From the IMG/VR virus record IMGVR_UViG_3300028920_001041: a DNA stretch of 64,000 bases; one strand, given 5' to 3'. Source of the stretch: an uncultured virus (IMG/VR IMGVR_UViG_3300028920_001041). Lineage: Duplodnaviria; Heunggongvirae; Uroviricota; Caudoviricetes. Below the pieces are notes generated by a model. The model made no database searches. It saw nothing but the letters and a program-made list of their open reading frames with translations, and was not told the origin of the DNA. Of this stretch, positions 4,680 to 42,700 are shown piece by piece. The stretch's first letter is position 1. Every line of letters starts with the position of its first letter. Made by a program: the position numbers and the translations under genes.

Positions 4680-4701
4680 ATTAATATCACCTCACTTTAA
4701 A

Positions 4702-5043: not shown

Positions 5044-5059
5044 TTTAATTCTCCTTGAT

Positions 5060-5087: not shown

Positions 5088-5097
5088 TAGTACAATA

Positions 5098-5191
5098 ATG
5101 GGGTTTGTAACCGAGCTCCAGAAATAATTTGATAATTTTTGGTTTGGATGAAGTCCCACATATAATTGGGGCTTCATCCATCATTTTTTTT
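5098..5191 (+). ncRNA. putative ~95-nt small RNA antisense to the late operon
   Basis: promoter motif upstream; hairpins GGGGTTTG/CGAGCTCC and GGATGAAGTCCC/GGGGCTTCATCC followed by a T tract; G-U pairs favour the + strand. Confidence 0.45.
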
Positions 5192-5962: not shown

Positions 5963-6008
5963 CTTTATTACGCCTCCTAAAACATTTATATTTGATTAGT
6001 ATTTAATC

Positions 6009-6347: not shown

Positions 6348-6348
6348 A

Positions 6349-6927: not shown

Positions 6928-6929
6928 AA

Positions 6930-7526: not shown

Positions 7527-7538
7527 AATATAAGCTCC

Positions 7539-10029: not shown

Positions 10030-10056
10030 TACTATTTTCCTTCCGGACAAAGAATA

Positions 10057-16285: not shown

Positions 16286-16299
16286 TAAATTACTACCTC

Positions 16300-17769: not shown

Positions 17770-17780
17770 AATCTCCTTCT

Positions 17781-25025: not shown

Positions 25026-25033
25026 ATTTCCCC

Positions 25034-25867
25034 TCATATAAATAACTTTACAATTTCATCATCCTTGTTTAAAAATCTATCACTTAATCCTCTATCATTT
25101 AAATCATTAAATCTATAATAACTTCCGTCTCTAACATCATATGGGTTATAATAGAAAATTTTCTTGCCATAATATGCACATTCAAGAAAGAGACGAGGAT
25201 GAGGATCAAAATATTTATTCGCATGGTAATAAATAAACCTATCAAAAAACTCAAATAAATTCTTAAAATGATCAGTTTGTTTAAAATATATAGATCGATT
25301 ACGATCTAAATTTAGTTCTTCGATAAAATTATAATTATCATTCCCGGGTGAATTTATATAATATCCTTTTCTTGTGCCATCTATTTTCCTCATTCGATCA
25401 AATAATAATTTCATTCGATACGGCGTATCTTTATATACGAAAGGCATTTCTCCATAATATGTTACATTATATAAATCTTTACGAAACATATATTCAGGAT
25501 TATCAGTATGTAAATCACTTATAATAGTTATTTCAGTAATTACATCTATTTCCCCTGCTTTTAAAATACCACGCAATCTATTAATTGTCGTGTAATCTAA
25601 TATTAAAACCTTTTCGAATACATAATGTACAATGTTGAATCTTCTTATATTTTCAATATTATCTTTCCAATTCAAGTCGTCCAAGTTATATCGTTCTTCT
25701 ATAATATTAAAGAGATATTGTTTAAACTCGACATTGAAATCTATTAGAATCATCCTCATTTCTGGATTATGTTCTAGTATAGCGAAATAATATTCAAACG
25801 CATCTATTATTGCTCCACTAACCGTTTTATGAGGATATGCATTACAAAGAAGTACAGCATTCATCAT
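25034..25867 (-). CDS. putative glycosyltransferase-like protein
   Basis: SGAIIDAFEYY; DPHPRLFLECAYYGKKI; DDEIV. Confidence 0.55.
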   Translation of the reverse strand: MMNAVLLCNAYPHKTVSGAIIDAFEYYFAILEHNPEMRMILIDFNVEFKQYLFNIIEERYNLDDLNWKDNIENIRRFNIVHYVFEKVLILDYTTINRLRGILKAGEIDVITEITIISDLHTDNPEYMFRKDLYNVTYYGEMPFVYKDTPYRMKLLFDRMRKIDGTRKGYYINSPGNDNYNFIEELNLDRNRSIYFKQTDHFKNLFEFFDRFIYYHANKYFDPHPRLFLECAYYGKKIFYYNPYDVRDGSYYRFNDLNDRGLSDRFLNKDDEIVKLFI

Positions 25868-26685
25868 TAAATACCTTTATCTGGTGTCCACCCGATGAGA
25901 GAGATATGAGAATCTATATCGTCTTCTATTGTTTCTGGTACCATGTCTTCTAAATATAAACGATCTGGGTTATTAAAGAATAAATTAAATTCTTTTCCTG
26001 CGTTCGACAGATAATCTAATTCTTCCCTCTTAACCACTTTACTATCTTCAGAATATTTACGCATATTTAAAAGATCCATAATTGTGAAATACTTATTATA
26101 TTGGGGAGTAGAATGAATAAATTTATTATGATCGAAATGTAATCCAGTTAAATTCATAACATCTTTAATTACTGATTCTTGATTTGCAATCAACGATTCA
26201 AATTTTATACTCATTACATTCGTATATTGACTAACTGGTAAAAATCTTTTAAAATGAGGAAAATAAGCAGAAGCATATTTCTTAACACCACCAACTCTAT
26301 GCTGTGTGACAACCCAACACGCTCTAGGATCTCTACCAATAAAGAATCCATAATCACAATATTTAACAAATTCTTCAGATCTAATAAAAACAAAGACATA
26401 CGGTTTATCTGTTAGATTATCATATATCTTTAATAATAGTTCTTTATTTAAATTATCTCTTACTAGATCAATAGCAAATGAATCACATCCATACGTTTTA
26501 ATTATGTGAAACATATTCTCGCCTGAAAAATCTGTTAATTTATCTAATCTAATATCGTCACCGATATGAGTGGGACTTCTATTCGAATTCATGAAGAATT
26601 GATTCTTAAAATTCTTATTAAATATATCTAAAAGGAGACTCTTTCCTCCATCAGTCATCATCATCAAACCAATTATAGTCTTCAT
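25867..26685 (-). CDS. sulfotransferase-like protein
   Basis: N-terminal GGKSLL loop, GRDPR, IKFESLI...VIKDVMNLTGL pattern. Confidence 0.5.
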   Translation of the reverse strand: MKTIIGLMMMTDGGKSLLLDIFNKNFKNQFFMNSNRSPTHIGDDIRLDKLTDFSGENMFHIIKTYGCDSFAIDLVRDNLNKELLLKIYDNLTDKPYVFVFIRSEEFVKYCDYGFFIGRDPRACWVVTQHRVGGVKKYASAYFPHFKRFLPVSQYTNVMSIKFESLIANQESVIKDVMNLTGLHFDHNKFIHSTPQYNKYFTIMDLLNMRKYSEDSKVVKREELDYLSNAGKEFNLFFNNPDRLYLEDMVPETIEDDIDSHISLIGWTPDKGI

Positions 26686-27443
26686 TAAATCTCCCCCCTT
26701 AATTTCCGCACTCTATTCTCTAAAAGACCAATCTGTTCCGATGAATCAATTCCAAACCCAATATGTTTTATCTTATACATCATAACAGGAATACTAGACT
26801 CAATAAACCTATTTTGCTCAAGACTTTCAATATCTGAGTTTTTACTCCAAATTGACGGACCATTTACTGCAAAGAGATCTCTAGGGAATATAAAAATACC
26901 TACATGCTTATTATACTCTTCTAACTTTAGTCCTTCTCCACTTCTTTTAATCGGCACAACAGCTCTAGAATTATATATCATTCTATTATTATATATTACT
27001 ATTTTACAAGAGAATAGACTAATCAAATCATCTACACTATAAAAACTTGAGTAAAACGATGATATTACATGTCTTGCAAAGTCAAATTTCGATACAACCT
27101 TGTTAACTTCATCAGGATCAATACAAGGTTCATCACTAGGGATAGATATATAATAATCAAAATCTTTATTCGATAAATAATATAAATATGACCGTTCTGA
27201 TCCACAGGATGCTTTACCTACATTGATAGCATCTACACCTATAAAATTCGTTTCTACATAATCAATAATATCTTCACTATCCGTGGCTACTACAATTTTA
27301 TTTAAGAAATCGAGTTTTAAGGCATTACTAATAACATGATGCAATATGGGTTTACCTAAAAATTCGGCAAACAATTTATTAGGGAACCGCTTAGATTTAA
27401 GTCTCGCTGGGATTACCCCTACAGCGCTGTCATTTATCTGCAT
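26685..27443 (-). CDS. kdsB: CMP-Kdo synthetase-like cytidylyltransferase
   Basis: IPARLKSKRFPNK, VVATDS, GSER, DEP, HVGIF, ESLEQNR. Confidence 0.85.
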   Translation of the reverse strand: MQINDSAVGVIPARLKSKRFPNKLFAEFLGKPILHHVISNALKLDFLNKIVVATDSEDIIDYVETNFIGVDAINVGKASCGSERSYLYYLSNKDFDYYISIPSDEPCIDPDEVNKVVSKFDFARHVISSFYSSFYSVDDLISLFSCKIVIYNNRMIYNSRAVVPIKRSGEGLKLEEYNKHVGIFIFPRDLFAVNGPSIWSKNSDIESLEQNRFIESSIPVMMYKIKHIGFGIDSSEQIGLLENRVRKLRGEI

Positions 27444-28269
27444 ATCTAGAGTTTATCTCCTTCATCGCCCTAAGAAATATAGAGTTATGTACAGTTCTAA
27501 ACATATGTTCAGTTCGATCGTCTGTTTTATATCGAAAACAATGAACTCCAATAACTCTAACTTCTTTCATACCTTCTCGCATATAATAAACACCATCGCG
27601 AACATAACAGTCTCTAACGACACAATTCCATTTATATGCATTACCTTTATCATTATTAAAATCAAAGAAATAATTAAGATAAAACTGTTCTGCACACCAA
27701 TTAGCAATAATAAACATATTAGCAAGACATTGTTTAAATCCTAATAGTTTCCTTTTTATTTGAATCACATGACCACCTAAAAGTCCGGCGTTAACAGTTC
27801 CTCCAAATGTTTTAATTAATTTAGCATTTGTTTTTAATTCTTTTTCTTTAATTCTTGGTTCCTTTGGCCCTCTATATATCTTTTTATTTAGATAATCTAA
27901 AGGTATCTTCTCACATGCCATTAAACAGCCAGTGGTTAATTCAATCATTGGCCACAACCCACTAACACTGCCCTGAAACCAGATATCTACATCCATAATA
28001 ACAACATTATAATTTTCATACTTATCTAATAACGGAATTAAATCAATGTATCTCGCTACTCCTGTTACTTCCTCTACTCGCAACATACAATTTACTATCT
28101 TCGCTCCTAACAACTTACAGCGAGCAATTATATCATCATTAATTCCATAGTTTAATATTAGAATTTCTCCATCGTACACTCCTAATGTTCTTAAACTAAT
28201 TATCCAATCTAATAATAATTCTTCTGTCGCTTTACTTGCTGCGCCACATATTAAAGTTTTATTTTCCAT
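27430..28269 (-). CDS. GT-A-fold glycosyltransferase-like protein
   Basis: MDVDIWFQ DxD motif, NAGLLGG, EQFYLN. Confidence 0.65.
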   Translation of the reverse strand: MENKTLICGAASKATEELLLDWIISLRTLGVYDGEILILNYGINDDIIARCKLLGAKIVNCMLRVEEVTGVARYIDLIPLLDKYENYNVVIMDVDIWFQGSVSGLWPMIELTTGCLMACEKIPLDYLNKKIYRGPKEPRIKEKELKTNAKLIKTFGGTVNAGLLGGHVIQIKRKLLGFKQCLANMFIIANWCAEQFYLNYFFDFNNDKGNAYKWNCVVRDCYVRDGVYYMREGMKEVRVIGVHCFRYKTDDRTEHMFRTVHNSIFLRAMKEINSRYADK

Positions 28270-28852
28270 TGATATATTCTTTATAATCAGATATTGCTCG
28301 ATGGTTAGTAAAACATTTCTTTAAGACAGCAGGTGGTACAGTTGCATAATCTGCTCCCTCTAACATTGCGAATATGACATCTGCTTTTTCACGAAAACTT
28401 GCAGCGATAATCCTTGTTTTATATTTGTAGTTCGTTCTAATCCTATTGCATTCATAAAGAAGACCTCTATTTTCATTTTTAGCAATCAGAACTATGCAAT
28501 AATCACAACCTAAGTCACAAGATTGATGAAATTGTAGTACATCATATGTTGTCGTTCCACATACTCTTATACTAGGAGTATCGACCAATTTTCTAATAAG
28601 ATCAAATTTTTGTTTGATTAATGGAACTTTATAAACCATTCTTCCTTTAGCTGCAGGTAAATCTTCCCATATTTGGTTTTCATTATCAATCTGGAGGAAT
28701 ATGTTATCAAACATTCCTGCCATTTTTGAGACAAAATCAGGAGTCTTAACATTCGCTTTTTTAAGAAGGTGAGGATTTGTTGTTACCCCCTCAACATAAT
28801 CTTTCCATTCGACAATTTGTTCTGTATCAGCAGTATCAATAAAGTACTTCAT
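28259..28852 (-). CDS. transaldolase / fructose-6-phosphate aldolase family
   Basis: FIDTA, GVTTNP, VYKVP (Schiff-base Lys), IAASFR, TVPP. Confidence 0.9.
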   Translation of the reverse strand: MKYFIDTADTEQIVEWKDYVEGVTTNPHLLKKANVKTPDFVSKMAGMFDNIFLQIDNENQIWEDLPAAKGRMVYKVPLIKQKFDLIRKLVDTPSIRVCGTTTYDVLQFHQSCDLGCDYCIVLIAKNENRGLLYECNRIRTNYKYKTRIIAASFREKADVIFAMLEGADYATVPPAVLKKCFTNHRAISDYKEYINGK

Positions 28853-28853
28853 A

Positions 28854-29768
28854 TTACACTTTCCTATAGTTTGTTGAAGTTCTATTTAATCTATCGTCAC
28901 CAGAAAATTTACTATTATAAATTACGGCATCTTGTTGGTCTCTTCGTTGGTCACAATTTTTACATATATAATTTGATTCTGCTAATGTTCCATCTATGTG
29001 CTGCTTTTTTAAATCAATAAAAGCATCAGAATTAAATATCTCTTCTAATGTTTGAGTCATAAAATCACCCAATAATAGTATTCCATTATAATCGAAACAA
29101 CACATGTTAATTGTTCCATCTACTTGAATCTGTAATGGACTATTTATTGGACGACCACAGGAATTTTTAACAATGGGTCCTTTCCTATAATCTAAAATGT
29201 CTACCCAATTATGAGGACGCCAAATCTCAAGAAGATCAACTCTATCTGAATACATTTCAATAATATTATCTATTTCATCCTTATTAATATCTATAACATC
29301 TATTGTGATAACTAGACGAGTGCATTCTTTGTTGTTAATAATATATTCAATATTCTTTAATACTTTTTTATGCTGAACAGGAGAAGCTCCCGTTATCTTA
29401 CAATAATTATCGGTATCTATCGAATGTAAGCTAATTCTAATATCTTCAACAGCTGTGTCGAATAATATATCAATTTGATTTTCATCTAATGTGCTTCCAT
29501 TAGTTAATATGTGAACGAGAAACCCTCGTTCTCTAGAATATTTAATCTTTTCAAAAATAGTAGGATCTAAAAATGCCTCACCAAATCCAGAAATAGTTGT
29601 TTCGTGTATATATGGTGCTTCAATCTTTAGTTTATCAATAATAAATCGATATATTTCCAACGACATGATCTCTTTTTTTCGAGTGAAATGTGTTGGATGT
29701 GTACAGAATTTGCAACGATAGTTACACTTTGTACAAGTCTCTATCCTTGCTTCGTTAGTTATTAGCAT
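28854..29768 (-). CDS. radical SAM protein with SPASM/twitch domain
   Basis: CNYRCKFC, GFGEA, CGRP...DGTINMCCFD...CKNC. Confidence 0.9.
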   Translation of the reverse strand: MLITNEARIETCTKCNYRCKFCTHPTHFTRKKEIMSLEIYRFIIDKLKIEAPYIHETTISGFGEAFLDPTIFEKIKYSRERGFLVHILTNGSTLDENQIDILFDTAVEDIRISLHSIDTDNYCKITGASPVQHKKVLKNIEYIINNKECTRLVITIDVIDINKDEIDNIIEMYSDRVDLLEIWRPHNWVDILDYRKGPIVKNSCGRPINSPLQIQVDGTINMCCFDYNGILLLGDFMTQTLEEIFNSDAFIDLKKQHIDGTLAESNYICKNCDQRRDQQDAVIYNSKFSGDDRLNRTSTNYRKV

Positions 29769-30514
29769 TATTTCATAACTCCACAAGTTCTTAATATACT
29801 TATTAATTCAGTAATTGGTAATTGTGTATCAGCATCACATAATGCATTATCAGGATCTGTGTGACATTCTATGAACAACCCATCAGACCCACAAGCAATA
29901 GAAGATTTTGCTAAATCATAAGCATATGTATAATTGTTCCAATATTTATTGGGATGAGTGATATCAGTCACAACTTTAAACTTATAAGGGGTTTTCCCCT
30001 TCATTACTCTGATGAATCTAGGATCCATAATTAAGTAATCGAATCCAAAACTGGTTCCTCTATCTCCTATTATTAATTCAGCGTCTTTATTTAATTCAAA
30101 TACTTTAGTAACTATCTGCCCTATCTTAAAAGGATTAAGATGCTGTGGCTTTTTAATATGAATCGGAAGATCTCTTTTTACTGCCGCTTCAATTATAGAT
30201 GTTTGCATTGCTAAGAATGCAGGAATTTGAATCAAATCAACTCTATATGCATAATGATTAATTTGATCAACACTATGAAAATCTGTTGTTATCTTAATAT
30301 TGAATGATGTGCTGATATCTTCTAATGCCGCTAATCCATCTTCAAATCCTGGTCCATAATAATTTTCTAATTTAGTTCTATTATCCTTAATACAAGATGC
30401 TTTAAAATAAAAATCTATGTCTTTAATGTTTTTAATAACATCATTAATTTTCTTAGCTGTTATGAACAGCTTCTCAGGATCTTCTATTACACATGGACCA
30501 CAAATTAAAATCAT
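29768..30514 (-). CDS. kdsA: Kdo-8-phosphate synthase-like enzyme
   Basis: ICGPCVIE, FKAS..KDNRT, QIPAFL, IKKPQ, RGTSFG, DITH, FIECH..PDNALCD. Confidence 0.88.
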   Translation of the reverse strand: MILICGPCVIEDPEKLFITAKKINDVIKNIKDIDFYFKASCIKDNRTKLENYYGPGFEDGLAALEDISTSFNIKITTDFHSVDQINHYAYRVDLIQIPAFLAMQTSIIEAAVKRDLPIHIKKPQHLNPFKIGQIVTKVFELNKDAELIIGDRGTSFGFDYLIMDPRFIRVMKGKTPYKFKVVTDITHPNKYWNNYTYAYDLAKSSIACGSDGLFIECHTDPDNALCDADTQLPITELISILRTCGVMK

Positions 30515-31410
30515 ATTACTTCTCCAACAACCCAATCAATAAAAGTGCTGTATTTTGATCTATCTAAAATATACTCAAAATTATTATCGAACACATTCTT
30601 ATAAAAATTTTTAAATAATGACGAATTAAAAGGAATATTGTCATTATGAATATATGCCCCCGGTATAAATCTATCATGAACCTTTACAAAATCTTTAATA
30701 TCATCTATCCCATCACAATGCAGCCTTCCTTCTAATACAGGGGATATTATCTCTTTATTATTCTGAATTGCTTCTATTAAAGAATACGGCAAAGGATCGA
30801 TATAGTTTCTAGATTGTGGATAAACGTAATGAGTTATATTTGAGAAAAATACTTGTTGATCAAAAGTATGATGATGATTTAAAACATATTTAAACCTTTT
30901 ACTAAAATCATGTCTAGTATTTTGCCCCATCGTGTATACGTCAACATAAGAATATAAATCATTTAACATTCCTAAAAAATAATCAAACGAATCCCTTGTT
31001 ATATAGTTTCTTATATAAAATCCCAAACAAGGTCTAGTGACCTCTGATTGTTTCACTATAAAATCTGTAATCATAGGAATGAAATTCTTAATACTGTCAC
31101 ATTCATGAGTATAATAAAAACCATTATTACATGATTTATTTCCGAAGTAGTTATATTCATTTCGAACATATATTAAATAATCAATATCAATTAAAGAAAC
31201 AATATTAACAGGGAACGAATAATTACTCGGAACCTGAGTAACAAATATAAGCTTTTTGTATTTCTCATTTAACTCTCTTAAATTAACTACATCTTTTGAT
31301 TCTAGATGATCTAGATATTCCGAGTGTTCATTAGCCATTCTTTCTGAAACTGTAAATGCTCCACGTTTAAGATTTCCGTAGGCTACAGATATCAATAAGT
31401 ATTTCTTCAT
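30511..31410 (-). CDS. putative glycosyltransferase-like protein
   Basis: KRGAFTV N-terminal loop; DPLPYSLIEAIQNNKEI GT-B-like motif. Confidence 0.5.
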   Translation of the reverse strand: MKKYLLISVAYGNLKRGAFTVSERMANEHSEYLDHLESKDVVNLRELNEKYKKLIFVTQVPSNYSFPVNIVSLIDIDYLIYVRNEYNYFGNKSCNNGFYYTHECDSIKNFIPMITDFIVKQSEVTRPCLGFYIRNYITRDSFDYFLGMLNDLYSYVDVYTMGQNTRHDFSKRFKYVLNHHHTFDQQVFFSNITHYVYPQSRNYIDPLPYSLIEAIQNNKEIISPVLEGRLHCDGIDDIKDFVKVHDRFIPGAYIHNDNIPFNSSLFKNFYKNVFDNNFEYILDRSKYSTFIDWVVGEVI

Positions 31411-31427
31411 AATTATTAACAATAACG

Positions 31428-31456
31428 GGAGGTAAATATATGAAATATTTACCTCC
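31428..31456 (-). terminator. stem-loop between the Cys-repeat operon and the sugar cluster
   Basis: GGAGGTAAATAT/ATATTTACCTCC perfect 12-bp stem. Confidence 0.6.
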
Positions 31457-31470
31457 AGTCATTATATTAT

Positions 31471-32064
31471 TTAACCAAACTGTGAGTAGAAACTGTCTGT
31501 CATTGATCTAACTTGTTCAACAGAGGTCGCAGTATCAAGATCTCTCGAAAACTGTAACCACTGTTTGTACATAAAATTACCTTCAGATAATTTATCTAAT
31601 AGTGCCAAATATTCTTCCAAAGAAGAAATCAGATCTGAATCCCCAGTGTTTACGATTTCTAAATACTTTTCTTCCCTATTTGAATCTGAAATAATATACC
31701 CAGCAGCACCAAGTTTATTATTTAAAAGTTGAAAAGAAAAGAATTCAAACATACTTATATATCCAACTCTATAAGCTACAAAATGTTTTGATCGAATTAT
31801 AGCACCTTGTCTTTCGGCAGCAATCGGATCCGGAATATCTTGAATAATTAAATCTCTAAATGTTAGAGGGTAATCGATACCTTTCGGGAAAAATACTTCT
31901 TTCCCGTTCTCCATAGCATCCTCGATCTGTTTCTTTAAATCATAGCTAGGAATCTCATAATATTTAACACCACTATGTTCAAAAATCTGACCTTCATCCC
32001 CCTCTAAAACAGAAATTACTCTGTAGTTGATACCAACATCAGCTACACCTGCTAGAATCTTCAT
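31471..32064 (-). CDS. hypothetical protein (possible fibre-assembly accessory protein)
   Basis: GGAGG RBS; last gene of the Cys-repeat operon; function is a positional guess. Confidence 0.7.
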   Translation of the reverse strand: MKILAGVADVGINYRVISVLEGDEGQIFEHSGVKYYEIPSYDLKKQIEDAMENGKEVFFPKGIDYPLTFRDLIIQDIPDPIAAERQGAIIRSKHFVAYRVGYISMFEFFSFQLLNNKLGAAGYIISDSNREEKYLEIVNTGDSDLISSLEEYLALLDKLSEGNFMYKQWLQFSRDLDTATSVEQVRSMTDSFYSQFG

Positions 32065-32078
32065 ATTTTCCTCCAAAA

Positions 32079-32591
32079 TTAATTATCTTTTAACATTGAA
32101 TCATTATTACATTGACAAGTACAATGATAATCACAATTGCATGTACATGAGTAATTACATTGACAAGTACATGAATAGTCACACTGACAAGTACATTGAT
32201 AATCACAATTGCATGTACATGAGTAATTACAATCACATACACATACACCAATATTTTCTTTATTGATAGGTTCTTTAGGATCTACATCATATTTACTTAA
32301 TAGTAATTCTATTTTCTCTAACAATTCAGGAAGTAATTCAACCATTTCAATTATTTCCTGTAGAGCTTTTATAAGCAATGGAGAGAATTGTCCGTAATCT
32401 ACTTTAAAATAATTTGATTGTTGATCTTTTGAAACTATCGAATATTTATCAGGACTAAATATCTTTGTTAAGTCTTGGGCTATTACACCAAAGAAAATTC
32501 TTTCATCTTCAATATGATCAGGATGTTTTTCTTTATCATATCGAAATTTAACTGCTTTAAACCGTTTAACTAATTCTAAATATTCTCCCAT
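32079..32591 (-). CDS. stand-alone body of a peptidase-S74 (tail-fibre chaperone) domain plus 6 Cys repeats
   Basis: KAVKFRY, FGVIAQDL, VDYGQFSPLLIKALQE; lacks the SDxxxK start; C-terminal CxCxCxY repeats. Confidence 0.8.
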   Translation of the reverse strand: MGEYLELVKRFKAVKFRYDKEKHPDHIEDERIFFGVIAQDLTKIFSPDKYSIVSKDQQSNYFKVDYGQFSPLLIKALQEIIEMVELLPELLEKIELLLSKYDVDPKEPINKENIGVCVCDCNYSCTCNCDYQCTCQCDYSCTCQCNYSCTCNCDYHCTCQCNNDSMLKDN

Positions 32592-33353
32592 TTAAAGATA
32601 TTCAACCTCAAGTTTAAGATTTTCATCTGAATAATTACAATCACATGTGCAATTGTAATCACAATCACAGGTACAATAGTTACAATCACAGGTACAATAG
32701 TTACAATCACAAGTACACGGATAATTACAGTTACATGTGCATGCATAGTTGCATTGACAAGTACATGCATAGTTGCATTGACAAGTACATGCATAATTAC
32801 ACTTACAAGTACAGGTATAATCACATTGGCAACTACAACCATAATTGCAATTACATACACATTCAGATTCTAGAAAATTCATCCTATCTCTTAACGCTAC
32901 AATAGGTTCATCTCTAATCTGATCACCATCTTCAAGAACTGAATTAGCTAAATCACCTGGATATGCCCAACCAGGAGATAACGTCGCAATTGCAGACCGT
33001 AACTCTAGAATCGTCTCATTATTAATAACCCCACCTGCAGAAACCGCTGGTGGTGGAACACCAGGTTCACCACGACGACCTGCTTCATTAAGAATAGCAG
33101 TTCTTAATTCGTTAATATGAACAGCTTTAATTTGAAATTGTGTAGTAAGACCAGGATCAGTCCATACTGTAGGCGTAACAGGATCTATTCTTCCAGTGTG
33201 AGTAGGACAAACATCACTTCCCCCAACATGGCCAGGGCAAGATGTAGTAACTGAATGTGCTGTACAAGCAATTGTAGCTGCGTGTCCGCTACAAGATGGT
33301 AAATTTGTGTGACCTGTGCAAGTTGTAGTATTTGAATGTGCCGTACAAGCCAT
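32592..33353 (-). CDS. Cys-rich repeat protein (putative fibre or rSAM substrate)
   Basis: CxxH N-terminal repeats, WTD...IKAVHINELRTAI, 10 CxCxC(N/D)Y repeats, ends YSDENLKLEVEYL. Confidence 0.88.
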   Translation of the reverse strand: MACTAHSNTTTCTGHTNLPSCSGHAATIACTAHSVTTSCPGHVGGSDVCPTHTGRIDPVTPTVWTDPGLTTQFQIKAVHINELRTAILNEAGRRGEPGVPPPAVSAGGVINNETILELRSAIATLSPGWAYPGDLANSVLEDGDQIRDEPIVALRDRMNFLESECVCNCNYGCSCQCDYTCTCKCNYACTCQCNYACTCQCNYACTCNCNYPCTCDCNYCTCDCNYCTCDCDYNCTCDCNYSDENLKLEVEYL

Positions 33354-33374
33354 AATTTTCCTCCAAGAAATTTA

Positions 33375-34259
33375 TTATAGATATTCAATATCTCTTTTGA
33401 CTCTTTCATCTGAGTAATTACAGTTACATACACAAGGATAGTTGCAATTACAGGTACACGGATAGTTACAGTTACAGGTGCATGCATAGTTACAATTACA
33501 GGTACATGCGTAATTACATTGACAGGTACAACCATAGTTGCATTGACAGGTACATGCGTAGTTACAATTACAAGTACATGCGTAGTTGCATTGACAGGTA
33601 CATGCGTAATTACATTGACAAGTGCAACCATAGTTGCATTGACAGGTACAACCATAGTTGCATTGACAGGTACATGCGTAATTACATTGACATACACAGA
33701 CTTGTTCAAAAGTATTAAGCCCTGTTCGTAAACTTTCTAGTTGCTCATTTTGTATTACATCACCTTCCTCTAAATTCACAAGATCTAATGACGAATGTGC
33801 AGACCAAGGGCCAAACAGATTCAATGCTGCTCTGAATGATATAACAGTTGCATTATCAACTGCACTACCAACAGAAACTGCTGCAGGGATAGTCGCCCCG
33901 GCAGATCTTCTTGTATTTTCATTAGATATTGCAGTTCTTAGCTCATTAATATGTTGAGCTTTAATAGCAACACCAGTAAGAGCAGAATCTGTCCAAGTAG
34001 TAGGCGTTATAGGGGCTACAAATCCAGTACAACCACTCGCAGGATCAGTTGCTGAATGTGTTGCACAAGTTGTTGTGTTTGCATGACCAGAACAATATGT
34101 CGTTGCTGAATGTGCTGCACATGATACTGTGTTTGAATGTGATACGCAAGCTAATGTATTTGAATGTGCTGTACATGGACCCGCAGCATGTCCGTAACAT
34201 GATACTGTGTTTGAATGTGATACGCAAGCTAATGTATTTGAATGCGCCGTACAAGCCAT
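33375..34259 (-). CDS. Cys-rich repeat protein (paralog)
   Basis: CxxH N-terminal repeats, WTD...IKAQHINELRTAI, 12 CxCxCNY repeats, ends YSDERVKRDIEYL. Confidence 0.88.
   Translation of the reverse strand: MACTAHSNTLACVSHSNTVSCYGHAAGPCTAHSNTLACVSHSNTVSCAAHSATTYCSGHANTTTCATHSATDPASGCTGFVAPITPTTWTDSALTGVAIKAQHINELRTAISNENTRRSAGATIPAAVSVGSAVDNATVISFRAALNLFGPWSAHSSLDLVNLEEGDVIQNEQLESLRTGLNTFEQVCVCQCNYACTCQCNYGCTCQCNYGCTCQCNYACTCQCNYACTCNCNYACTCQCNYGCTCQCNYACTCNCNYACTCNCNYPCTCNCNYPCVCNCNYSDERVKRDIEYL
33414..33698. repeat. 24-bp coding tandem repeat (Cys octapeptide)
   Basis: units such as CATAGTTGCATTGACAGGTACAAC; related arrays at about 32630-32863 and 32105-32246. Confidence 0.9.
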
Positions 34260-34282
34260 AATTTTCCTCCAAAGATTTAATT

Positions 34283-35434
34283 CTATACAATCTGTTTTAA
34301 TGCTTTAGTAATTTTACCATTAATTTTATAAAATCTACAAAGTCTCGGTTGAGTAGCGTAATCTCTCCACTTATCAATATAAGTGTCTTTATTACTAGAT
34401 TCATACTTAACTGGGTTACATCGTAGACAATAATCTGCTTCACAATCCATACATTCAATAGGCTGATATCCAAAATTAGTATTATGCAATGTATGGGAAG
34501 CACTTAATTTATCTATAAAATCTTCATCTTTTAAATTGGAAACAATATGATCATCAACTTTATCGTCATAAACACTTCCATGACATTTATAAATTTTGCC
34601 ACCTACCCCGACACAAACCATATCTCTTCCGGCACAACAAAGAGCTTTATTAGGATTAAACCACGCAAAGAAGAACTGATTATTGTTCTTCTTACGAAAG
34701 TCTATCTCTTTTGCTGCGATTTCAGCAAGGACATTTTCTAGATCAACACAATATTCATCTATTTCTGCATCACTATATTTATCTAAGTGATAATAATCGA
34801 TTGTTGGAAAATAATTGCCAGAATGAAAGAATTGCTGACCTAGATATTGTTCATAAATATCTCTTATATCCTCATAAGCAGATAGCAAGTACTTAAAAGC
34901 ATCAGGAGGTATAGTTGACTTGACTGTACTTGGAATTCTATTATTATACACCTTTAAAATATTATTTCTAACTGTGTTTGATGTTAACACTCCATCTTTT
35001 CTGGTTCGATATATGTCATGAACAGGTATCCCATCATAAGACATCTGAATACAAAACTTAGGGTGTCCACCTTCAATAAATTGATCTTTAAGTCTAATAA
35101 GAGTATCCCAAATACCATCTAAATAATACCCATTACTAAAGATAAAAAATTTAACTCTAGGATTATTTTCATAATAGCTTATAATATTATTTACAAGCTT
35201 GTGGGCTAATGTGGGTTCGCCACCCCAAAGACCAATATTTAATGCATCATATTTTTCGTTAAAAAAATTCGAATTTAATAATTCGTCAGCTTTAGTCTTA
35301 AATAATTCAATGTCTTTAAAAAATGTATTCCTGAAATGTCCATCTTCAAAACAATATTTACATCCAAAGTTACAAGAATCTGTTAGTGTTAAATCTATGT
35401 TATACATACGAACTTGATTGAAAGTTTTACTCAT
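34283..35434 (-). CDS. radical SAM/SPASM peptide-maturase-like enzyme
   Basis: CNFGCKYC, WGGEP, SYDG, CCAG...KIYKCH...CMDC...CLRC...C. Confidence 0.9.
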   Translation of the reverse strand: MSKTFNQVRMYNIDLTLTDSCNFGCKYCFEDGHFRNTFFKDIELFKTKADELLNSNFFNEKYDALNIGLWGGEPTLAHKLVNNIISYYENNPRVKFFIFSNGYYLDGIWDTLIRLKDQFIEGGHPKFCIQMSYDGIPVHDIYRTRKDGVLTSNTVRNNILKVYNNRIPSTVKSTIPPDAFKYLLSAYEDIRDIYEQYLGQQFFHSGNYFPTIDYYHLDKYSDAEIDEYCVDLENVLAEIAAKEIDFRKKNNNQFFFAWFNPNKALCCAGRDMVCVGVGGKIYKCHGSVYDDKVDDHIVSNLKDEDFIDKLSASHTLHNTNFGYQPIECMDCEADYCLRCNPVKYESSNKDTYIDKWRDYATQPRLCRFYKINGKITKALKQIV

Positions 35435-35448
35435 TTCATCTCCACTTT

Positions 35449-36456
35449 CTAAAATTGACTGAACTTCACTTTTGTCTCTTTATTTGCATAAGTTATACCA
35501 GTTGTCGGAGATAAATACGCATTACCAACGCTTGTTGATTTATCACACCGTCCACAAGCAACGCATGTTACACCACAAAAAGGAATATTATATAGTAAAT
35601 ACACATGTTCTAAGTATGGTCGTAATTGATTTCGCAATACCTCAGCATAACCTGGGGGACCAACAGAATCTAAATCTTTATGAGCAAAACTAAGAGCAAT
35701 TTTATCACAAGTAGGCCATCTTTCACATATTTCGATCATATCTTCTACAACTTTATCATAGTTCCCAGCATGAACTGTATAACTCATACTAAAGAATATA
35801 TAATGTTTAACAAGATTATCAACTGCTCGTTCAACATATGGTTTAGAACTTGCACCATTAGGAAACTTTCTACGATAATGTCCTGACCCATCATAACTTA
35901 CTTCGATACTAAGATATACATTCTTATTCTCAACTGATGCCTTTAATTCTTTATATTGTAGAATTAATCGTTCATCTAGGAACAATAATGCGTTAGTGGT
36001 TATAGGAATTGCCCAACCTCCACCTTTAGGTAAATCAGCTGCTTTTCTAACTAAATATTCATAAAGATCAAATTTTAACAAAGGTTCTCCACCCATTACA
36101 ACAATACATGAATTTAGATTTCCCTCTCTTTCGTGAATTTCATGAAGAAAAGAATCTAACATCTCTGTAGAACAATTAGCATGATCTGGAAGACCTTCGC
36201 GACTATCTTCTTCATAACAATATTCGCAACGAAGATTACAATTAGTATTTAAATAAACAACATTGGTTCTTGTCGTTCCTTGTGCATCATTAATCTGTTT
36301 AACTAATTTTTGTTCACCATATATTGTATTATCTTGATCACACCCTTGCCCATCTTTGCATGACTGACAAGAATCGCATACTTGATTTTTTTCACCTAAT
36401 GTCTCTTTAATATCAGTCATAAATATATTTATATCTTCCTTAGTTACATGACTCAT
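35449..36456 (-). CDS. radical SAM protein (maturase-like core, Cys-rich N-terminus, no full SPASM)
   Basis: CNLRCEYC, MGGEP, TTNA, SYDG; N-terminal CDSCQSC...C. Confidence 0.9.
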   Translation of the reverse strand: MSHVTKEDINIFMTDIKETLGEKNQVCDSCQSCKDGQGCDQDNTIYGEQKLVKQINDAQGTTRTNVVYLNTNCNLRCEYCYEEDSREGLPDHANCSTEMLDSFLHEIHEREGNLNSCIVVMGGEPLLKFDLYEYLVRKAADLPKGGGWAIPITTNALLFLDERLILQYKELKASVENKNVYLSIEVSYDGSGHYRRKFPNGASSKPYVERAVDNLVKHYIFFSMSYTVHAGNYDKVVEDMIEICERWPTCDKIALSFAHKDLDSVGPPGYAEVLRNQLRPYLEHVYLLYNIPFCGVTCVACGRCDKSTSVGNAYLSPTTGITYANKETKVKFSQF

Positions 36457-36459
36457 TTA

Positions 36460-36984
36460 TCACTTCCCCATTTTAGACCGTATTTTTGAGACAAGATCCT
36501 TAACATCACTTTCTATCTCATTAACTGATGTTGGATTACCAACACCAATGCCCTGCCCTGATGCATTTTTACCATGAATAGGACAGTCACAATCTACACC
36601 TTGACCCATAGCATTCTTACCATGAATAGGGCAATTCTCATCACTTGAAGTATTACTACCCTGTAATCCGCCAGCGCCATGCCCTCGACATTCTTGAGGA
36701 TCAGCATTTATATGACCTACACAAATCTGGTCTTTGTTTACATCCGCTTCTGACGCCTCACTAGCAGTACTAAATGATAGAACCTTACTACCACTAGGTG
36801 TTGGCGCCATATTATCTAGCGAACAAGATTGTTCTTCTTTCGGTTGACAACATTCAACAATTTTAAGAAGTTTATCAGATATATACAAACATAGATCACT
36901 AAGACTATTATCAAATTCTTTTATTTCTTGTGATACTTTTAACATTCCTTGCGCCGAATTAAAGATTTTAGCTTGGTCCATCAT
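36460..36984 (-). CDS. Cys/His/Gly-rich protein with CPIHGKNA repeat
   Basis: two CPIHGKNAxGQG repeats; CxGH motifs. Confidence 0.75.
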   Translation of the reverse strand: MMDQAKIFNSAQGMLKVSQEIKEFDNSLSDLCLYISDKLLKIVECCQPKEEQSCSLDNMAPTPSGSKVLSFSTASEASEADVNKDQICVGHINADPQECRGHGAGGLQGSNTSSDENCPIHGKNAMGQGVDCDCPIHGKNASGQGIGVGNPTSVNEIESDVKDLVSKIRSKMGK

Positions 36985-36993
36985 TCGCCTCCA

Positions 36994-38112
36994 TTAGCCA
37001 ACATTTTGAATAGATCCTTTTACCATTTCTTGGAATAATTCATTGTCTTTTAATTCATGAACAATTCTCATCGATTGTTTATATAAGATATGTAATAATT
37101 CACAAACACCATCTACTGGTTCACAATAGTTAGCATTTGATTCATCAGTTTTTAATTGCTGAAAAGTACATCCAGCGTTACAATATTGATATAATTCACA
37201 TGTTTGACATTTATCATAGACTCGAGGATTAGCAACTTGTGGCGATTGCATAATATTAACAGTGTCACCAAATTCGATATTATTTATTGAATCATATAAT
37301 GGATTAATATCATTTGATCCAAATCTTGCACATGGATACACTAAACCATCTGGCATAAAACCAGCACCATTAACTCCAGCAAAACACCCAAATGGTCTTT
37401 TACCATAAGTTGTTCCAAAAAGAAGATCTAAAATATATAATTGGAAGAATCCAATAGTGGTTCTTATACCACTTTTAATATATTTTATCATTTGGGCTGC
37501 CAGTTTTTCTGCCTCTATTTCAAATCTCTTTACATCATCTTCTGTCCAGATATTATCTCGAACAATTGAGAAATCTGGACTTGGTAAATTAAATTCCTCA
37601 ACGAACCATTTATAGTTATCAACTAAAGTATCGATACTCTCAGGAGATACCATCACTTTACACCCTCCTTGTCCACTAAATCTAGACTTAAGAGGCTCTT
37701 CTAAATAAAGACTTAGACTAGAACTTCCGTCTTTAAGAGGTCTATTATGTTGATTCCATAGTCCGTCAAAAGATAGCGAAATCGCCAAATTATTTTTTTG
37801 AAAGTAATCCCACTTGTCACCATCCACAAACTCTAAACCATTAGTCATTGCTATAATAAAAGTACATCTAGGATCTTTTTTAAAGATTGGAACAATATAT
37901 TCAATTAATTTCCAATTTAATAGTGGTTCTCCACCAAATAAAGCTGCGTGATAATCATGTCGATTATATTTTTTCATCATTTTCGGCAGAGTATTATAAT
38001 AATGCGCATCAAAAACCTCTCGAGTCATATCTTTTGGCTTCTGATTAATATAACAATATGTACACGCCATATTACATCGTTCTGTAAGTACTAATTGAAA
38101 CTCAAATGACAT
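36994..38112 (-). CDS. radical SAM/SPASM peptide-maturase-like enzyme
   Basis: CNMACTYC, FGGEP, SFDG, GCFAG...GLVYPC...CQTC...CNAGC...C. Confidence 0.92.
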   Translation of the reverse strand: MSFEFQLVLTERCNMACTYCYINQKPKDMTREVFDAHYYNTLPKMMKKYNRHDYHAALFGGEPLLNWKLIEYIVPIFKKDPRCTFIIAMTNGLEFVDGDKWDYFQKNNLAISLSFDGLWNQHNRPLKDGSSSLSLYLEEPLKSRFSGQGGCKVMVSPESIDTLVDNYKWFVEEFNLPSPDFSIVRDNIWTEDDVKRFEIEAEKLAAQMIKYIKSGIRTTIGFFQLYILDLLFGTTYGKRPFGCFAGVNGAGFMPDGLVYPCARFGSNDINPLYDSINNIEFGDTVNIMQSPQVANPRVYDKCQTCELYQYCNAGCTFQQLKTDESNANYCEPVDGVCELLHILYKQSMRIVHELKDNELFQEMVKGSIQNVG

Positions 38113-38123: not shown

Positions 38124-38726
38124 TTATTTGATTACACATTCGACAAGTTTTTCAGAGGGCGAATCATTTGTTTCTAATGACATACCAATCTTATCAAGTT
38201 TTTCATTCATGTTTTCAATCGCTCTTGCGCAGCCACCACCAGCAGATACAATTGGTTGGCCTTTTCTAATCTGTCCCACAATTCTTACCGGAACACGACC
38301 TGTTAAACCAACTGCTTCCCCTTCTCCTGCAAAATTCATAAGATACGCAGGATTAGGAGAAAATACACCAACTACATTCTCAGCTAATTCATCATCGCAA
38401 ATCTGTAAATCTGCATCATCATCATCACAGACGCGTAATACTGTGCCTTCTGGAACAGTACCTTCTTTTATACTAAATCTTTCCGCTAAGTCGGCATATT
38501 TAGCGTAACTCGCAGTTCCCACAAAACTAACACTATAAACTGCTTTATACCTTTGACCGCTTCTTCCAAGGTCAATAGTGTTATCCGTATTTGGGGACAT
38601 TTCATCTGAATCGACAAAAATTCCACCTGAATGAAGATTTGAATAATATCCATCATTCCATCTTTTAGCAGGAGTACCAATGCTACCTTCACCAGTAGCT
38701 CGAGGAACTATATTTCTCGTAGCCAT
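38124..38726 (-). CDS. short fibre-type protein with peptidase-G2-like autoprocessing domain
   Basis: YADLAERF...GVFSPNPAYLMN...GRVPVRIVG. Confidence 0.75.
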   Translation of the reverse strand: MATRNIVPRATGEGSIGTPAKRWNDGYYSNLHSGGIFVDSDEMSPNTDNTIDLGRSGQRYKAVYSVSFVGTASYAKYADLAERFSIKEGTVPEGTVLRVCDDDDADLQICDDELAENVVGVFSPNPAYLMNFAGEGEAVGLTGRVPVRIVGQIRKGQPIVSAGGGCARAIENMNEKLDKIGMSLETNDSPSEKLVECVIK

Positions 38727-38751
38727 TCGATTAACCTCCAAAAATTATAAT

Positions 38752-39740: not shown

Positions 39741-42700
39741 TTACTTGATTATACACATTACGAGTTTTTCTTCATTCTCAAGATTTTCTTCAATAGACTG
39801 TCCTATCTTGTAAAGAAGTTCACTCTCTTTTCTAATTGCACGAGCAGCACCTTTTCCCGCAGAAACGATTACTTGTCCTTTACCAATAGGTCCTATAATT
39901 CTAACAGGAACCTTACCAGTAAGACCCACAACTACACCATCTGATTCATCATTCATCAAATAGCCAGGATCTGCAGAACAAACACCAGCGACGTTTTTAC
40001 AGAGTTCAGTACCACACTCCTCAACTTCGTATTCTCCAGAATCACAAGCCTTCATGATTGTTCCTGGATATACGTCATCTTCAGCACAGGTATATTTTTC
40101 GGCAAGATCAGCGTAACGAGCAGATGTTGCTTGCCCTGATACAATACCACTGGTCCAAATATTATTTCCTAATGCAGCAGTTGGACTACCGTTTTGTGCC
40201 CATACAAGCTGATGACCTACTGCTCTTAAGGATGCACTATACTGATATGCTGCACCATAGAGATTACCAAAATCGGCACCTGAGGCACTATTCCTAAAAG
40301 ACGTACCCATAGACCAAATATGCTGAGTCTTAGTTTGGTCATAAGTACCAAATATACCTTCATCTCTATTAGCATCTGGAACAACAATAGCAGAAACTAA
40401 GTAATCATCTTCTCCAGATTTCAAAAGATTAGAGGCATTATATCCATCAACAGTGTCCGCGTCAAGACCATTTCCTGCCCCCTCATCTGCAACTGTGAGA
40501 ACTCTATTGTTAAAAACTAGAACTTCATCTGCAACACCACCGGATGCGGTAATTCTTAAAGGATAAGGAGTCGTACCCGTATTTGGATACCGAATAGTGA
40601 ACGCCTCACCATCAGCAGTTAGATGCCAATCACCAGCAACATCATCTGATTCACTAAGTATAAATTGTGGTGCAATATTATTAATAGCAATATTTCCAAT
40701 AGTGATTTGATGACTTACATCTTTTCTCAAAATATTGGCAGCTTCAACACCATCAACAGTATCTGCATCTAGACCTGATCCAGTACCATCATTACCAGCG
40801 TGCCAAATTTCATTACCTTTCCACTCGAAGAAGTCTTTATCAATATAGACTAACTCTCTAGCGGCATCATGCCTAACACTCTCATCACATGTGATCAATA
40901 AAGCCCCATCCATTGTCGGGTTACCATCCACCAGATTCATTAAACGAGTATCATTAGGTTGATGTGCCCCTAGCGTCGGAGTGCCTGTACGATCACCGCC
41001 ATCCTGAAATGATAAACCTTCTCCTATTTGTGACATATATAATGGTCTTGAATTACCTGCTATCGATAAAGTACCATTGAATGTATCATCAACATTACTT
41101 CTCAAATAAGCACTACCATTAACGCCATCAAGCAACTCAGAATCTGCAGCTTTCGCAGTGGTTCCTAATTTACCTGCAAGACCATTGTCAACGTAAGTTT
41201 TAGCAGCAAGTTGACTTGGATAATCACTATCGGAAGCTGATCCTCCACCTAACCCTGTATCGGTGTTTAGATTATTCAGATTGGCATAGTTATTGACAAT
41301 TTCTGTTTCAGTGTAATAACGATTATCATGATTATGACTATCATTCGCAACAGTCGCAACAATATTAACATTCGCAGAACCGTCAAACGATACAGAACCT
41401 GTAACATCACCTGACAAGCTAATATCTCTAGCATTGTTAAGTTTTGCTGCATTTTCCGCAACACCCTTAAACGTCTGGGCATAGATTTCAGCGAAACGAT
41501 GTGTAGCATCACCGATATCATATGTAATATCTGCGCTCGGTGTAGTATTAGCGTTTCTTCTCAAAAATCTTGTATCTTGCTCTGTTTCTGTATAATATCG
41601 AGTATCATGAGTATGACTATCGTTTACAACAGCGGCAGTTATACCAGCGTCACCTGTACCATCAAAAGAAACTGTACCTGTGACATCCCCTGACAATGTA
41701 ATATTACGAGCGGTTTCTAGCGCTGTCGCCGTAGCGGCATTGCCATCTAATTCGCCATGAATAGTCGTGCCATGTATATCAGAGAATTTAGCACCTGCTG
41801 AACCAAGACTATGCGTATCATCCGCATCTGGTAAAGCATCAGCATTACGACGTAAATATACAGAATCATGATTATGAACACTTAATTCGAGATCGGTCAT
41901 AGATCCTGTAATACCTGCTTGCCATTTATCTGTTGCTTCATTATATATAAGTCTAGCATTCGGCAAATTGCCGCGTTCAATTTCAATACCACCAGACCCT
42001 GCAGTTATACCATCCCCAGTTTGATTCTTATTAAGAACAATTTCATTATCCTCAACCTGAAGAGTTGCAGTATCAACAGTGGTTGTCTCACCATTAACAT
42101 AAAGATTTCCTTGAACAGTTAAATCTCCACTACTTTCCACTTCCCCTGCTGTGATTTTACCAGCAGCATCTAGAGTGACGTTATTTGCAATAATTGTAAA
42201 ATCATTAGCAGCGCCACAATTGACAGCAATATCATCATTACCATCACCCAAAGTAGCTTGTTCGCCAAAAGTAACTGGCGTCTGTACATCAAGAACACCT
42301 TTAATACTAATAGTGTTATTATCATCATAACCGAGATCAACATCTCCATCTACTCTAAGACTCTGATCAAATCTGACCTCAGCAGTACCCGTTGTTCGAA
42401 TTGAATCTACAGTTGCTACACCACTTGCTTCAAGATCTTTACAAGCGATAACACCTTGTCCGACATTTCCTTGTGCATCAAAGGAAAATTTATTGTTAAC
42501 CGTATCAAAAGATATCGGATAGTTTTGCCCGCCAACTTGAAACTGAAATACTGGTCTAACCTCAATTTCTCCACCACCTGGATTATATGTAAACGGCTTC
42601 AATGTAATATTCGAAGCTTGAATAGTAGGTACTTCAGCTGCCGAAGTCGGAGAAGCTCCAGCATCAATCGCTAGAGATGTACCTTCAAAGGTAGCATTAT

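Follow-up and report, generated by a model that had tools for sequence, protein, structure and literature searches.

Within the window, i.e., the entire 64,000-nucleotide stretch of viral DNA analysed here, the minus strand carries two genes for Cys-repeat proteins (clients 1 and 2), a shorter open reading frame behind them (the body), and three radical SAM genes in front of them (Table 1). Client 1 combines eight CxxH motifs, spaced 9 residues apart, with a helical middle domain and 12 CxCxC units that recur every 8 residues; client 2 contains six CxxH motifs and 10 CxCxC units (residues 165-241). Neither client, searched alone against Pfam, matched any family. The middle domain of client 2 is predicted at pLDDT 84-98, and its model matched no PDB fold at E <= 0.001. 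The Cys repeats and the CxxH repeats of the client model stay below pLDDT 50 when predicted as a monomer, so that a triple-beta-helix of the 8-residue Cys repeats is only putative.

Table 1. Features of the client-body locus and its radical SAM neighbourhood (positions in the window)
Feature	Position	Strand	Length or residues	Matches and remarks
Conserved downstream cassette gene	31471..32076	-		phrog_25260; synteny in related loci
Body ORF	32079..32591	-	170 aa	PF13884
C-terminal end of body, NNDSMLKDN	32082..32108	-		
CxCxC units of the body	32109..32243	-	residues 117-161	six units, 8-residue spacing
Remainder of S74 in the body	32277..32591	-	residues 1-105	PF13884, 25.7 bits; PDB profile and fold matches
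Client 2, Cys-repeat protein	32592..33353	-	253 aa	
Client 2 tail	32595..32630	-	12 residues	SDENLKLEVEYL; Ser242, Lys247
Client 1, Cys-repeat protein	33375..34259	-	294 aa	phrog_26958
Client 1 tail, S74 domain head	33378..33413	-	12 residues	SDERVKRDIEYL; Ser283, Lys288
Radical SAM gene immediately 5' of client 1	34283..35434	-		PF04055; PapB family best in NCBIfam, below cut-off
Radical SAM gene	35449..36456	-		PF04055; PapB family best in NCBIfam, below cut-off
Small conserved cassette protein	36460..36984	-		synteny in L004, L005, L006, L020, L022, L026
Radical SAM/SPASM gene	36994..38112	-		PF04055; TIGR04085 SPASM, 36.4 bits (cut-off 27); PapB, 135 bits

Both clients terminate 12 residues into the start motif of a peptidase S74 domain, a layout that the sequence-only reading had proposed and that is borne out here. 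Client 1 ends ...CNCNY-SDERVKRDIEYL before a double stop (TAATAA, 33372..33377), behind which lies client 2 and no body ORF; client 2 ends ...CDCNY-SDENLKLEVEYL before a single TAA (32592..32594). Each tail holds the S74 dyad of Ser and Lys(i+5) at the domain start (S283/K288 in client 1 and S242/K247 in client 2), for which PMC8326128 describes a catalytic role. The tail pattern is rare by chance (a mean of 0.02 matches per shuffled window in 50 shuffles), and its two matches among the 835 six-frame ORFs of the window are the two client C-termini.

The rest of the domain is found in the body, which, as had been noted, is a separate ORF lying in frame and without a gap behind client 2: at the junction (TAT CTT TAA ATG GGA), its ATG directly follows the TAA. 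The body contains FGVIAQDL and VDYGQFSPLLIKALQE, and its residues 1-105 form beta strands and one long helix (residues 66-100). Searched alone against PF13884 (Pfam cut-off 22), it scores 25.7 bits over profile positions 16-53 of 58; when client 2 and the body are joined with an X at the TAA, the score is 32.9 bits over positions 1-53, such that the two pieces cover the profile without gap or duplication. A profile of the body matched 3gud (1.4e-6), 8jov (4e-4), 7dc3 (7.7e-4), and 3gw6 (0.016) in the PDB, and the top folds for its model (mean pLDDT 70.8; residues 1-100 at 81-91 except one block at 69) were 7dc3 (7dc3_A: E 5.7e-4, rmsd 2.9 over 105 columns), 3gud, and 3gw6. Both pieces belong to S74.

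The S74 domain is the textbook example of a chaperone that acts solely on the polypeptide of which it is part and that cleaves itself off after folding. The present system resembles the known examples (phage K1F endosialidase, 3gw6; the GA-1 neck appendage, 3gud; and the MyRF ICA, 7dc3) in the family and fold of the body and in a Ser...Lys(i+5) head placed straight after a repetitive fibre-type segment, and fused S74 relatives with matching Cys repeats also exist. However, the entire S74 domain is expected in one C-terminal polypeptide, whereas here it is divided after residue 12 between two genes by a stop that occurs in both clients, and one body stands beside two clients; eight further lineages depart from the one-polypeptide arrangement in the same way. 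Divided over two polypeptides, such a domain cannot be intramolecular.

The body of the window also ends in Cys repeats of its own, as the sequence-only reading stated. This extension of six CxCxC units is restricted to the lineage of the window and is absent from the bodies of L012, L014, L020, L022, L026, L031, and L104. The claim that the body terminates in a degenerate S74 motif holds in part: NNDSMLKDN does align with YSDxxLK, but it has Asn at the place of Ser, occurs only in the window and in P0003, and has no counterpart at the ends of the other three close body homologues. Judged from this alignment, it may at most be a vestige of the head motif.

The division of the domain is conserved and is no sequencing error. 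Among 172 related Cys-repeat proteins, each with at least three CxCxC units, 76 have their C-terminus exactly 12 residues after the Ser, which agrees with the earlier argument that identical stops in both clients speak against such an error; a further eight end 13-16 residues past the Ser. Homologues are not always fused, as the entire S74 domain is present in only 27 of the 172. At least 56 have no tail whatever, and S74 is thus dispensable for making Cys-repeat proteins. Twelve relatives end exactly in ...C-x-C-x-[Y/H/F], at the residue preceding the Ser position, as do both clients of L002/L004; from their sequences, such ends would look like the expected pre-cut form. A tailed protein together with a separate body ORF occurs in nine lineages (window/L001, L003, L012, L014/15, L020, L022, L026, L031, and L104), and the starts of these bodies agree within three residues of domain position. 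By comparison, 72 ordinary S74 loci were retrieved from viral contigs, and in 71 of these head and body lie in one ORF (one of the 71, L088, is truncated by the start of its contig); the sole split locus is L031. The relatives of the body in viral contigs were detected by alignment-based queries; a scan of these contigs with the body sequence alone found nothing, and megablast of the 30-40 kb region of the window against phages gave no match.

Tail and body also tend to occur together: both are present in nine lineages, only the tail in three, only the body in one, and neither in eight (Fisher p=0.0075, or p=0.0098 without L031, a lineage detected by way of its body), although the test overstates independence because the counted lineages are related. 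The canonical tails of L005, L006, and L013 are accompanied by neither a body nor other S74 in the available DNA, these records being an estimated 65, 66, and 21% complete, respectively. In L002/L004, which is one phage in two metagenomes, both tails are lost and the body is intact: the client 1 tail has degenerated and carries stops where the Ser and Asp codons would be, and client 2 lacks two bases of its Ser codon. This body must therefore serve, or have come to serve, some function that is independent of the tail.

The structure of a complex formed by three copies of client 2 residues 196-253 and three copies of body residues 1-105 was predicted, as the sequence-only reading had suggested. 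In the model, the tail docks on the body with a score of 0.80, compared with 0.01 for the best of three controls. In calibration, this mark was attained for 116 of 157 complexes of solved structure and for 2 of 215 mismatched pairs; the present prediction, in which 3+3 chains were given their own alignments, is unlike that calibration set. Contact agreement between runs is at least 95%, and the pLDDT is at least 83 for the partner and only 58 for the client side. The predicted interface joins client 2 residues 238-253 to body residues 12-19, 22-25, 34-41, and 59-67. The score may stem from solved S74 trimers already known to the predictor, an effect to which halves of split genes are prone. 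The interface can be compared with the crystal structure of the MyRF ICA, in which, according to PMC8326128, a cleavage-site "cable" from the neighbouring subunit threads a beta-strand "donut" and cleavage occurs between P586 and S587, with Y615, Y617, I637, and Q639 at the cleavage site. On that description, the head docks onto another chain even in fused domains, and the body contact residues F16, Y18, I37, and Q39 align with these four MyRF residues. Binding of the tail by the body is thus supported at the level of the model.

Our preferred explanation, to which we assign a probability of roughly 70%, is that the locus encodes a naturally split S74 chaperone and autoprotease whose body acts in trans on the client tails. 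The sequence-only reading had offered action in trans as one of two options, and it gains weight from the conserved split, the co-occurrence of tail and body, the bodies' own starts, and a complex model that scores well above its controls. Each client would retain just the first 12 residues of S74, including both catalytic residues (Ser and Lys), and the remaining approx. 100 residues would be made as a separate protein by the next gene. The body would trimerise through its long C-terminal helix, and each of its subunits would bind one client tail as a strand on its first beta strand (KAVKFRY) and the GVIAQ loop. The three client C-termini would thereby be brought into register, and folding of the 8-residue Cys repeats could start. 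The Ser-Lys dyad would probably then cut between Tyr and Ser, giving mature clients that end in ...CNY, and both clients would be served by one body. Of these steps and their wider setting, we infer trimer nucleation, cleavage, thioether cross-links, and a role in a virion fibre.

The tails might instead be functionless leftovers of a decayed S74 domain, and the body a Cys-repeat protein in its own right that is trimeric and possibly structural. The phage that kept its body and lost its tails, the three tailed records without a body, and the Cys repeats on the body of the window's lineage speak for it. However, a non-functional tail would drift, whereas all 76 twelve-residue tails retain S, D, and K, and the same stop residue is used across proteins that are only 29-59% identical. 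Moreover, tail and body co-occur, and the bodies of seven other lineages are 83-103 aa long and have no Cys repeats, which makes this explanation unlikely.

It is also conceivable that the tail acts independently of the body, either as a follower peptide recognised by the radical SAM maturases or as a tag for docking to the particle. Radical SAM genes lie beside the clients at nearly every locus, and tails do exist in records without a body. Nonetheless, the radical SAM cassette also accompanies the tail-less or fused forms of L007, L016, L018, L021, L023, L025, L103, and L027, and thus the maturases do not need the tail. As, moreover, the profile search identifies the tail as the S74 head and the complex model places it on the body, we regard such a function as quite improbable.

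The second option of the sequence-only reading, that read-through or recoding at the TAA produces a client 2-body fusion, in which the chaperone would still act in cis and the separate ORF would be apparent only, is very improbable as a general mechanism: although the TAA is directly followed by an in-frame ATG in both the window and L003, and L026 is likewise in frame, the adjacent body is out of frame with its client in five of seven lineages (L014/15, L020, L022, L031, and L104), so that read-through is not conserved and the two in-frame cases are about what chance would give among seven independent adjacent lineages; the L012 body lies 5 kb from the client; client 1 ends in TAATAA with client 2, and no body, as the next gene; and every body has its own ATG or GTG start, mostly preceded by GGAG or AGGA-like sites. 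All three stops are in ordinary use among the 65 long ORFs of the window (TAA, the commonest, in 37, TGA in 15, and TAG in 13), which gives no sign of TAA reassignment. The contig of run X1, possibly the window's own source sample, has no alternative letter at 32592-32594; the X2 contig ends at 32519, and the X3 and X4 contigs do not include these positions. A minor read-through product may still be made in the window's phage.

With regard to the neighbourhood, PF04055 matches each of the three radical SAM genes above its cut-off, and SPASM does so only for 36994..38112. The PapB family (NF047865) is the best match for all three proteins at 135.4, 75.8, and 50.0 bits, each far below its cut-off of 340. 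The models of CXXX-repeat systems likewise stay below their cut-offs (TIGR04115, 38-59 bits vs. 350; TIGR04119, 23 bits vs. 150), and PF27846 occurs on only 52-58% of neighbouring Atlas cluster members, with feature scores <0.9. The small protein at 36460..36984 matched no family in Pfam or NCBIfam searches. Judging from gene neighbourhood, the Cys repeats of the clients are probably cross-linked by the three PapB-like enzymes. A comparable arrangement is described in PMC13692751 for CrpC/CrpA of Methanococcus voltae, in which the gene of a SPASM radical SAM enzyme lies beside its Cys-rich protein substrate. As in CrpC/CrpA and in the PapB ranthipeptide maturases, radical SAM genes here adjoin Cys-rich proteins; unlike in those systems, the putative substrates are encoded by a phage and combine CxCxC units of 8 residues with an S74 tail. 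A further idea, that radical SAM enzymes could act before folding owing to the split, in which case fused forms would be without them, was rejected, as the fused L027 has three directly upstream.

Within the trans-acting interpretation, the split might convert a folding module that works once and in cis into an assembly enzyme that can be reused for several clients, although we consider this extension tentative and rather doubtful. A free body trimer would capture three 12-residue tags and register the Cys-repeat chains, before or after their cross-linking by radical SAM enzymes; the tag would then be cut off and the body freed for another round. The clients could vary, perhaps even forming mixed trimers of clients 1 and 2, and the body of the window's lineage, having gained Cys repeats, would have become a third member of the assembly.

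Small separate chaperones whose genes lie just behind a fibre gene, and which fold trimeric fibres, are known from phages (T4 gp38/gp57A and the Tfa type of Mu/P2). The body resembles them as a small helper encoded after a fibre-type gene; to our knowledge, however, they are unrelated to S74 and complete no client-borne catalytic domain. By analogy, the system also resembles split inteins, in which a self-processing domain is divided into a short and a larger piece and becomes active once these associate, but the fold and chemistry differ, and cleavage and release, with no ligation, would be expected here. No description of split or trans-acting S74 domains or of such phage Cys-repeat proteins was found in the literature covered, most subscription journals lying outside that coverage.

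If the proposed mechanism is correct, the head segment of S74 alone would suffice as a docking and cleavage tag, and the locus would provide a simple two-component system for studying how S74 nucleates trimeric fibres; it also suggests a portable pair of tag and helper for trimeric proteins. More broadly, a single search revealed a sizeable and as yet undescribed phage protein group (76 representatives with a tail, 27 fused, and approx. 56 tail-less) that is associated with radical SAM enzymes of the thioether type, and this association of Cys repeats with radical SAM genes points to enzymatically cross-linked structural proteins in phages.

The split of the Peptidase_S74 (S74, intramolecular chaperone/autoprotease) domain in the Cys-repeat proteins is genuine and conserved, and makes a variant of a domain already known. 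The sequence-only reading had placed the stops of two Cys-repeat clients within the S74 head and the rest of the domain, the body, in a separate ORF, and this layout was confirmed in every particular. Clients and body form part of a long minus-strand operon on a phage-like contig (GC 33.6%), in which TAA, TGA and TAG are all in normal use as stop codons and tail-fibre PHROGs are matched across 38-47 kb. The CxCxC units of both clients are spaced by 8 residues, twice by 7, and the C-terminal segments are SDERVKRDIEYL (client 1) and SDENLKLEVEYL (client 2). The pattern of their tail, the first 12 residues of the domain with Ser and, five places on, Lys, has no third occurrence in the window, and shuffled windows average 0.02 matches. 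Client 1 is followed by TAATAA, a GGAGG site and client 2, whose TAA directly abuts the ATG of the body. Against PF13884, the body alone scores 25.7 bits from profile position 16, whereas client 2 and body joined (X at the stop) score 32.9 bits from position 1, bearing out the expectation that the joined sequence would match S74.

Features of the split locus and of other genes in the window
Feature	Coordinates	Strand	Remarks
Client 1	33375..34259	-	8 CxxH motifs (9-residue spacing), middle domain, 12 CxCxC units
C-x-x-H array of client 1	34259..34050	-	N-terminal
Client 2	32592..33353	-	6 CxxH motifs (9-residue spacing), middle domain, 10 CxCxC units
C-x-x-H array of client 2	33353..33180	-	N-terminal
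Client 2 middle domain	32862..33203	-	residues ~51-164
Body	32079..32591	-	S74 domain without head
Three radical SAM genes and small conserved protein	34283..38112	-	directly upstream of client 1
Small acidic protein	36460..36984	-	between radical SAM genes; duplicated CPIHGKNA-type motif
Radical SAM ORFs (14)	3978..38112	-	
Adjacent run of eight radical SAM ORFs	10057..17769	-	
Signalling and DnaJ-domain genes	6349..10050	-	same operon as phage genes
PAS histidine kinase	7539..9353	-	
Response-regulator receiver proteins (two)	6930..7526, 6349..6927	-	
DnaJ-domain protein	9346..10050	-	
Sugar-nucleotide genes	24051..30535	-	
DAHP/KDO8P-synthase family protein	29768..30535	-	
Transaldolase-like protein	28259..28852	-	
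Cytidylyltransferase	26685..27443	-	
GDP-mannose dehydratase/epimerase	24051..25037	-	
Peptidase_G2 module protein	38124..38741	-	205 aa
Fibre protein	39741..43355	-	1204 aa
Pyrimidine dimer DNA glycosylase	59745..60362	+	PF03013, 57.5 bits

The regularly spaced C-x-x-H arrays of the clients, modelled at pLDDT below 50, look like metal-binding sites or a second modification target. The middle domain of client 2 is modelled as three helices (pLDDT 84-98) and has a repeated xELRxAI motif, conserved family-wide; its model had no match in the PDB at E <= 0.001. S74 domains fold triple beta-helices, and from this role the 8-residue repeats would be expected to form one; they have no confident structure in the client, body or complex models.

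Client 2 was searched against 1.84 billion cluster representatives (273 relatives, 150 listed), and the body, in a word-based search, yielded 46; from a set of 183 proteins, the 172 with three or more CxCxC units were kept and the 11 with fewer dropped. Among the matches listed, 76 of the 172 end exactly 12 residues past the Ser, eight end 13-16 and one 26 residues past it, 27 carry a complete S74 domain (mostly extending 72 residues past the Ser), 12 end exactly one residue before the Ser position, 44 are without a tail of any kind and four are body-type. The 76 twelve-residue tails listed all keep S, D and K; at position 9 they carry I or V, at position 11 Y or F (72 tails), and at position 12 L, M, F or I. 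Since Cys-repeat proteins only 29-59% identical share the stop residue, the stop is neither a sequencing error nor due to chance; the earlier argument against such an error, drawn from the identical stop of the two clients, therefore holds, and the split is kept in homologs.

A profile built from ten body ORFs matches 3gud (1.4e-6), 8jov, 7dc3 (MyRF) and 3gw6 (K1F endosialidase), and in its alignment the body begins near residue 14 of the domain crystallised in 3gud. AlphaFold modelled residues 1-100 of the body at pLDDT 81-91 with one block at 69, and the ten best PDB folds for this model are those of 7dc3, 3gud and 3gw6. All bodies start at the same domain position within three residues; those outside the window's lineage are 83-103 aa long and without Cys repeats. 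The body of the window's lineage carries six CxCxC units; only in the window and in the body homologue P0003 does its end align with YSDxxLK, Asn replacing Ser. The sequences hint that this Cys extension derived from a client-type C-terminus, and the body in this lineage may by now double as a structural partner.

When the fetched loci were grouped into distinct lineages (L010, cut by the contig end, was left out), nine had a tailed client and a separate body ORF (window/L001, L003, L012, L014/15, L020, L022, L026, L031, L104), three a tail and no body or other S74 in the record (L005, L006, L013), eight neither tail nor body (L007/8/9/11, L016/17, L018, L019, L021, L023/24, L025, L103), one a body and broken tails (L002/L004) and one a fused domain (L027/28). 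Tail and body are associated (Fisher's exact p=0.0075; p=0.0098 when L031, detected via its body, is omitted), the lineages being related, so that independence is overstated. The body profile fetched 72 viral-contig loci, 71 of them ordinary S74 whose head and body share a single ORF (L088 among them, cut at the contig start) and one split (L031). On these sequences the split is, so far, confined to the Cys-repeat family. In L019, a tail-less Cys-repeat protein lies between two small whole-S74 proteins of 175 and 219 aa (6589..7113, 9995..10750, 10778..11434), which is the same parts in a different arrangement.

The co-occurrence of tail and body favours a body acting in trans. Several points nonetheless argue against a simple picture. 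L002/L004, one phage in two metagenomes, has lost both tails and kept a well conserved body (67% identical to that of the window). In its client 1, TGA TAA stand where the Ser and Asp codons would be and what is left of the tail is shortened, in its client 2 two bases of the Ser codon are missing and the other 11 tail codons persist undamaged in the +1 frame (L004 7380..7480 and 8150..8260, the same in L002), and its body gene starts 11 bases past the old stop. To this intact body are added the Cys units of the window's own body, the three tailed records without a body in the record (65, 66 and 21% complete, respectively) and the many Cys-repeat relatives without any tail. The other possibility raised from the sequence, TAA read-through, is rejected as a conserved mechanism because, although the body is in frame with the client in the window, in its close relative L003 and in L026, it is out of frame in L014/15, L020, L022, L031 and L104 and lies 5 kb away behind sugar genes in L012, every body begins with an ATG or GTG of its own (usually 5-12 bases past a GGAG, AGGA or AAGG site), and client 1 of the window ends in a double stop with no body behind it. 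The abutting TAA-ATG in the window looks like ordinary translational coupling.

The trans-acting body is also favoured by a model that combines client 2 residues 196-253 and body residues 1-105, three chains of each. This complex scored 0.80 against 0.01 for the best of three controls, in a job that differs from the calibration, in which 116 of 157 solved complexes and 2 of 215 mismatched pairs attained that level. The runs share at least 95% of their contacts, with pLDDT of at least 83 for the partner and only 58 on the client side; tail residues 247-252 lie along body residues 12-19, and S242-E244 against residues 37-39 and 61-63. Split-gene halves with solved family trimers can pass this test from the predictor's memory, and the prediction of tail-body trimers proposed in the sequence-only reading counts as support for S74 likeness more than as proof of binding. 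In the MyRF structure report (PMC8326128), cleavage falls between P586 and S587, the site is lined by Y615, Y617, I637 and Q639, and the head docks on another chain. The modelled geometry agrees with that structure, and a break after residue 12 would be tolerated because the S74 head already docks on another chain.

The radical SAM cassette next to client 1 has the same order in L004, L005, L006, L020, L022 and L026. The best family for all three enzymes is the PapB ranthipeptide maturase, far below the cut-off, and the next-ranked are SCIFF, QhpD, CXXX-repeat and sulfatase maturases. Whether the locus is fused, split or tail-less, radical SAM genes lie beside its Cys-repeat gene, with the exception of L019, where none was found within 5 kb. 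The SPASM radical SAM enzyme CrpC has been shown to put ranthionine links on the Cys-rich CrpA of Methanococcus voltae (PMC13692751); going by gene neighbourhood, the phage enzymes would cross-link the Cys repeats. The small acidic protein, which keeps its position in six other loci, had no family match. Of the 14 window ORFs that match Pfam Radical_SAM at E<1e-5, 12 score above the gathering score, and two in the adjacent run of eight have a weak B12-binding match or its position; the array is unusually large for a phage contig.

Among the other genes, those for sugar nucleotides also come after the Cys-repeat cassette in L004, L012 and L003. The only matches of the 205-aa protein are to the C-terminal portion of tail-fibre phrog_19602 and to the Peptidase_G2 IMC autocleavage domain, a module that also ends the fibre protein two genes upstream; by its sequence, the 205-aa protein may represent a fibre chaperone-type module present a second time, on its own. 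The PF03013 glycosylase is of the kind seen in T4 denV-type phage repair genes.

No published description of a split S74 domain was found in the literature searched, which left most subscription journals outside. The most likely reading is a two-piece S74 chaperone/autoprotease that acts in trans on two Cys-repeat clients. The body would complete the domain for both through their 12-residue tails, and the tail would be cut by the domain so completed. Docking of the tail on the body in trans is probable (roughly 70%), and docking followed by cleavage stands at about even odds. If true, one separate S74 body serves two different clients in trans.
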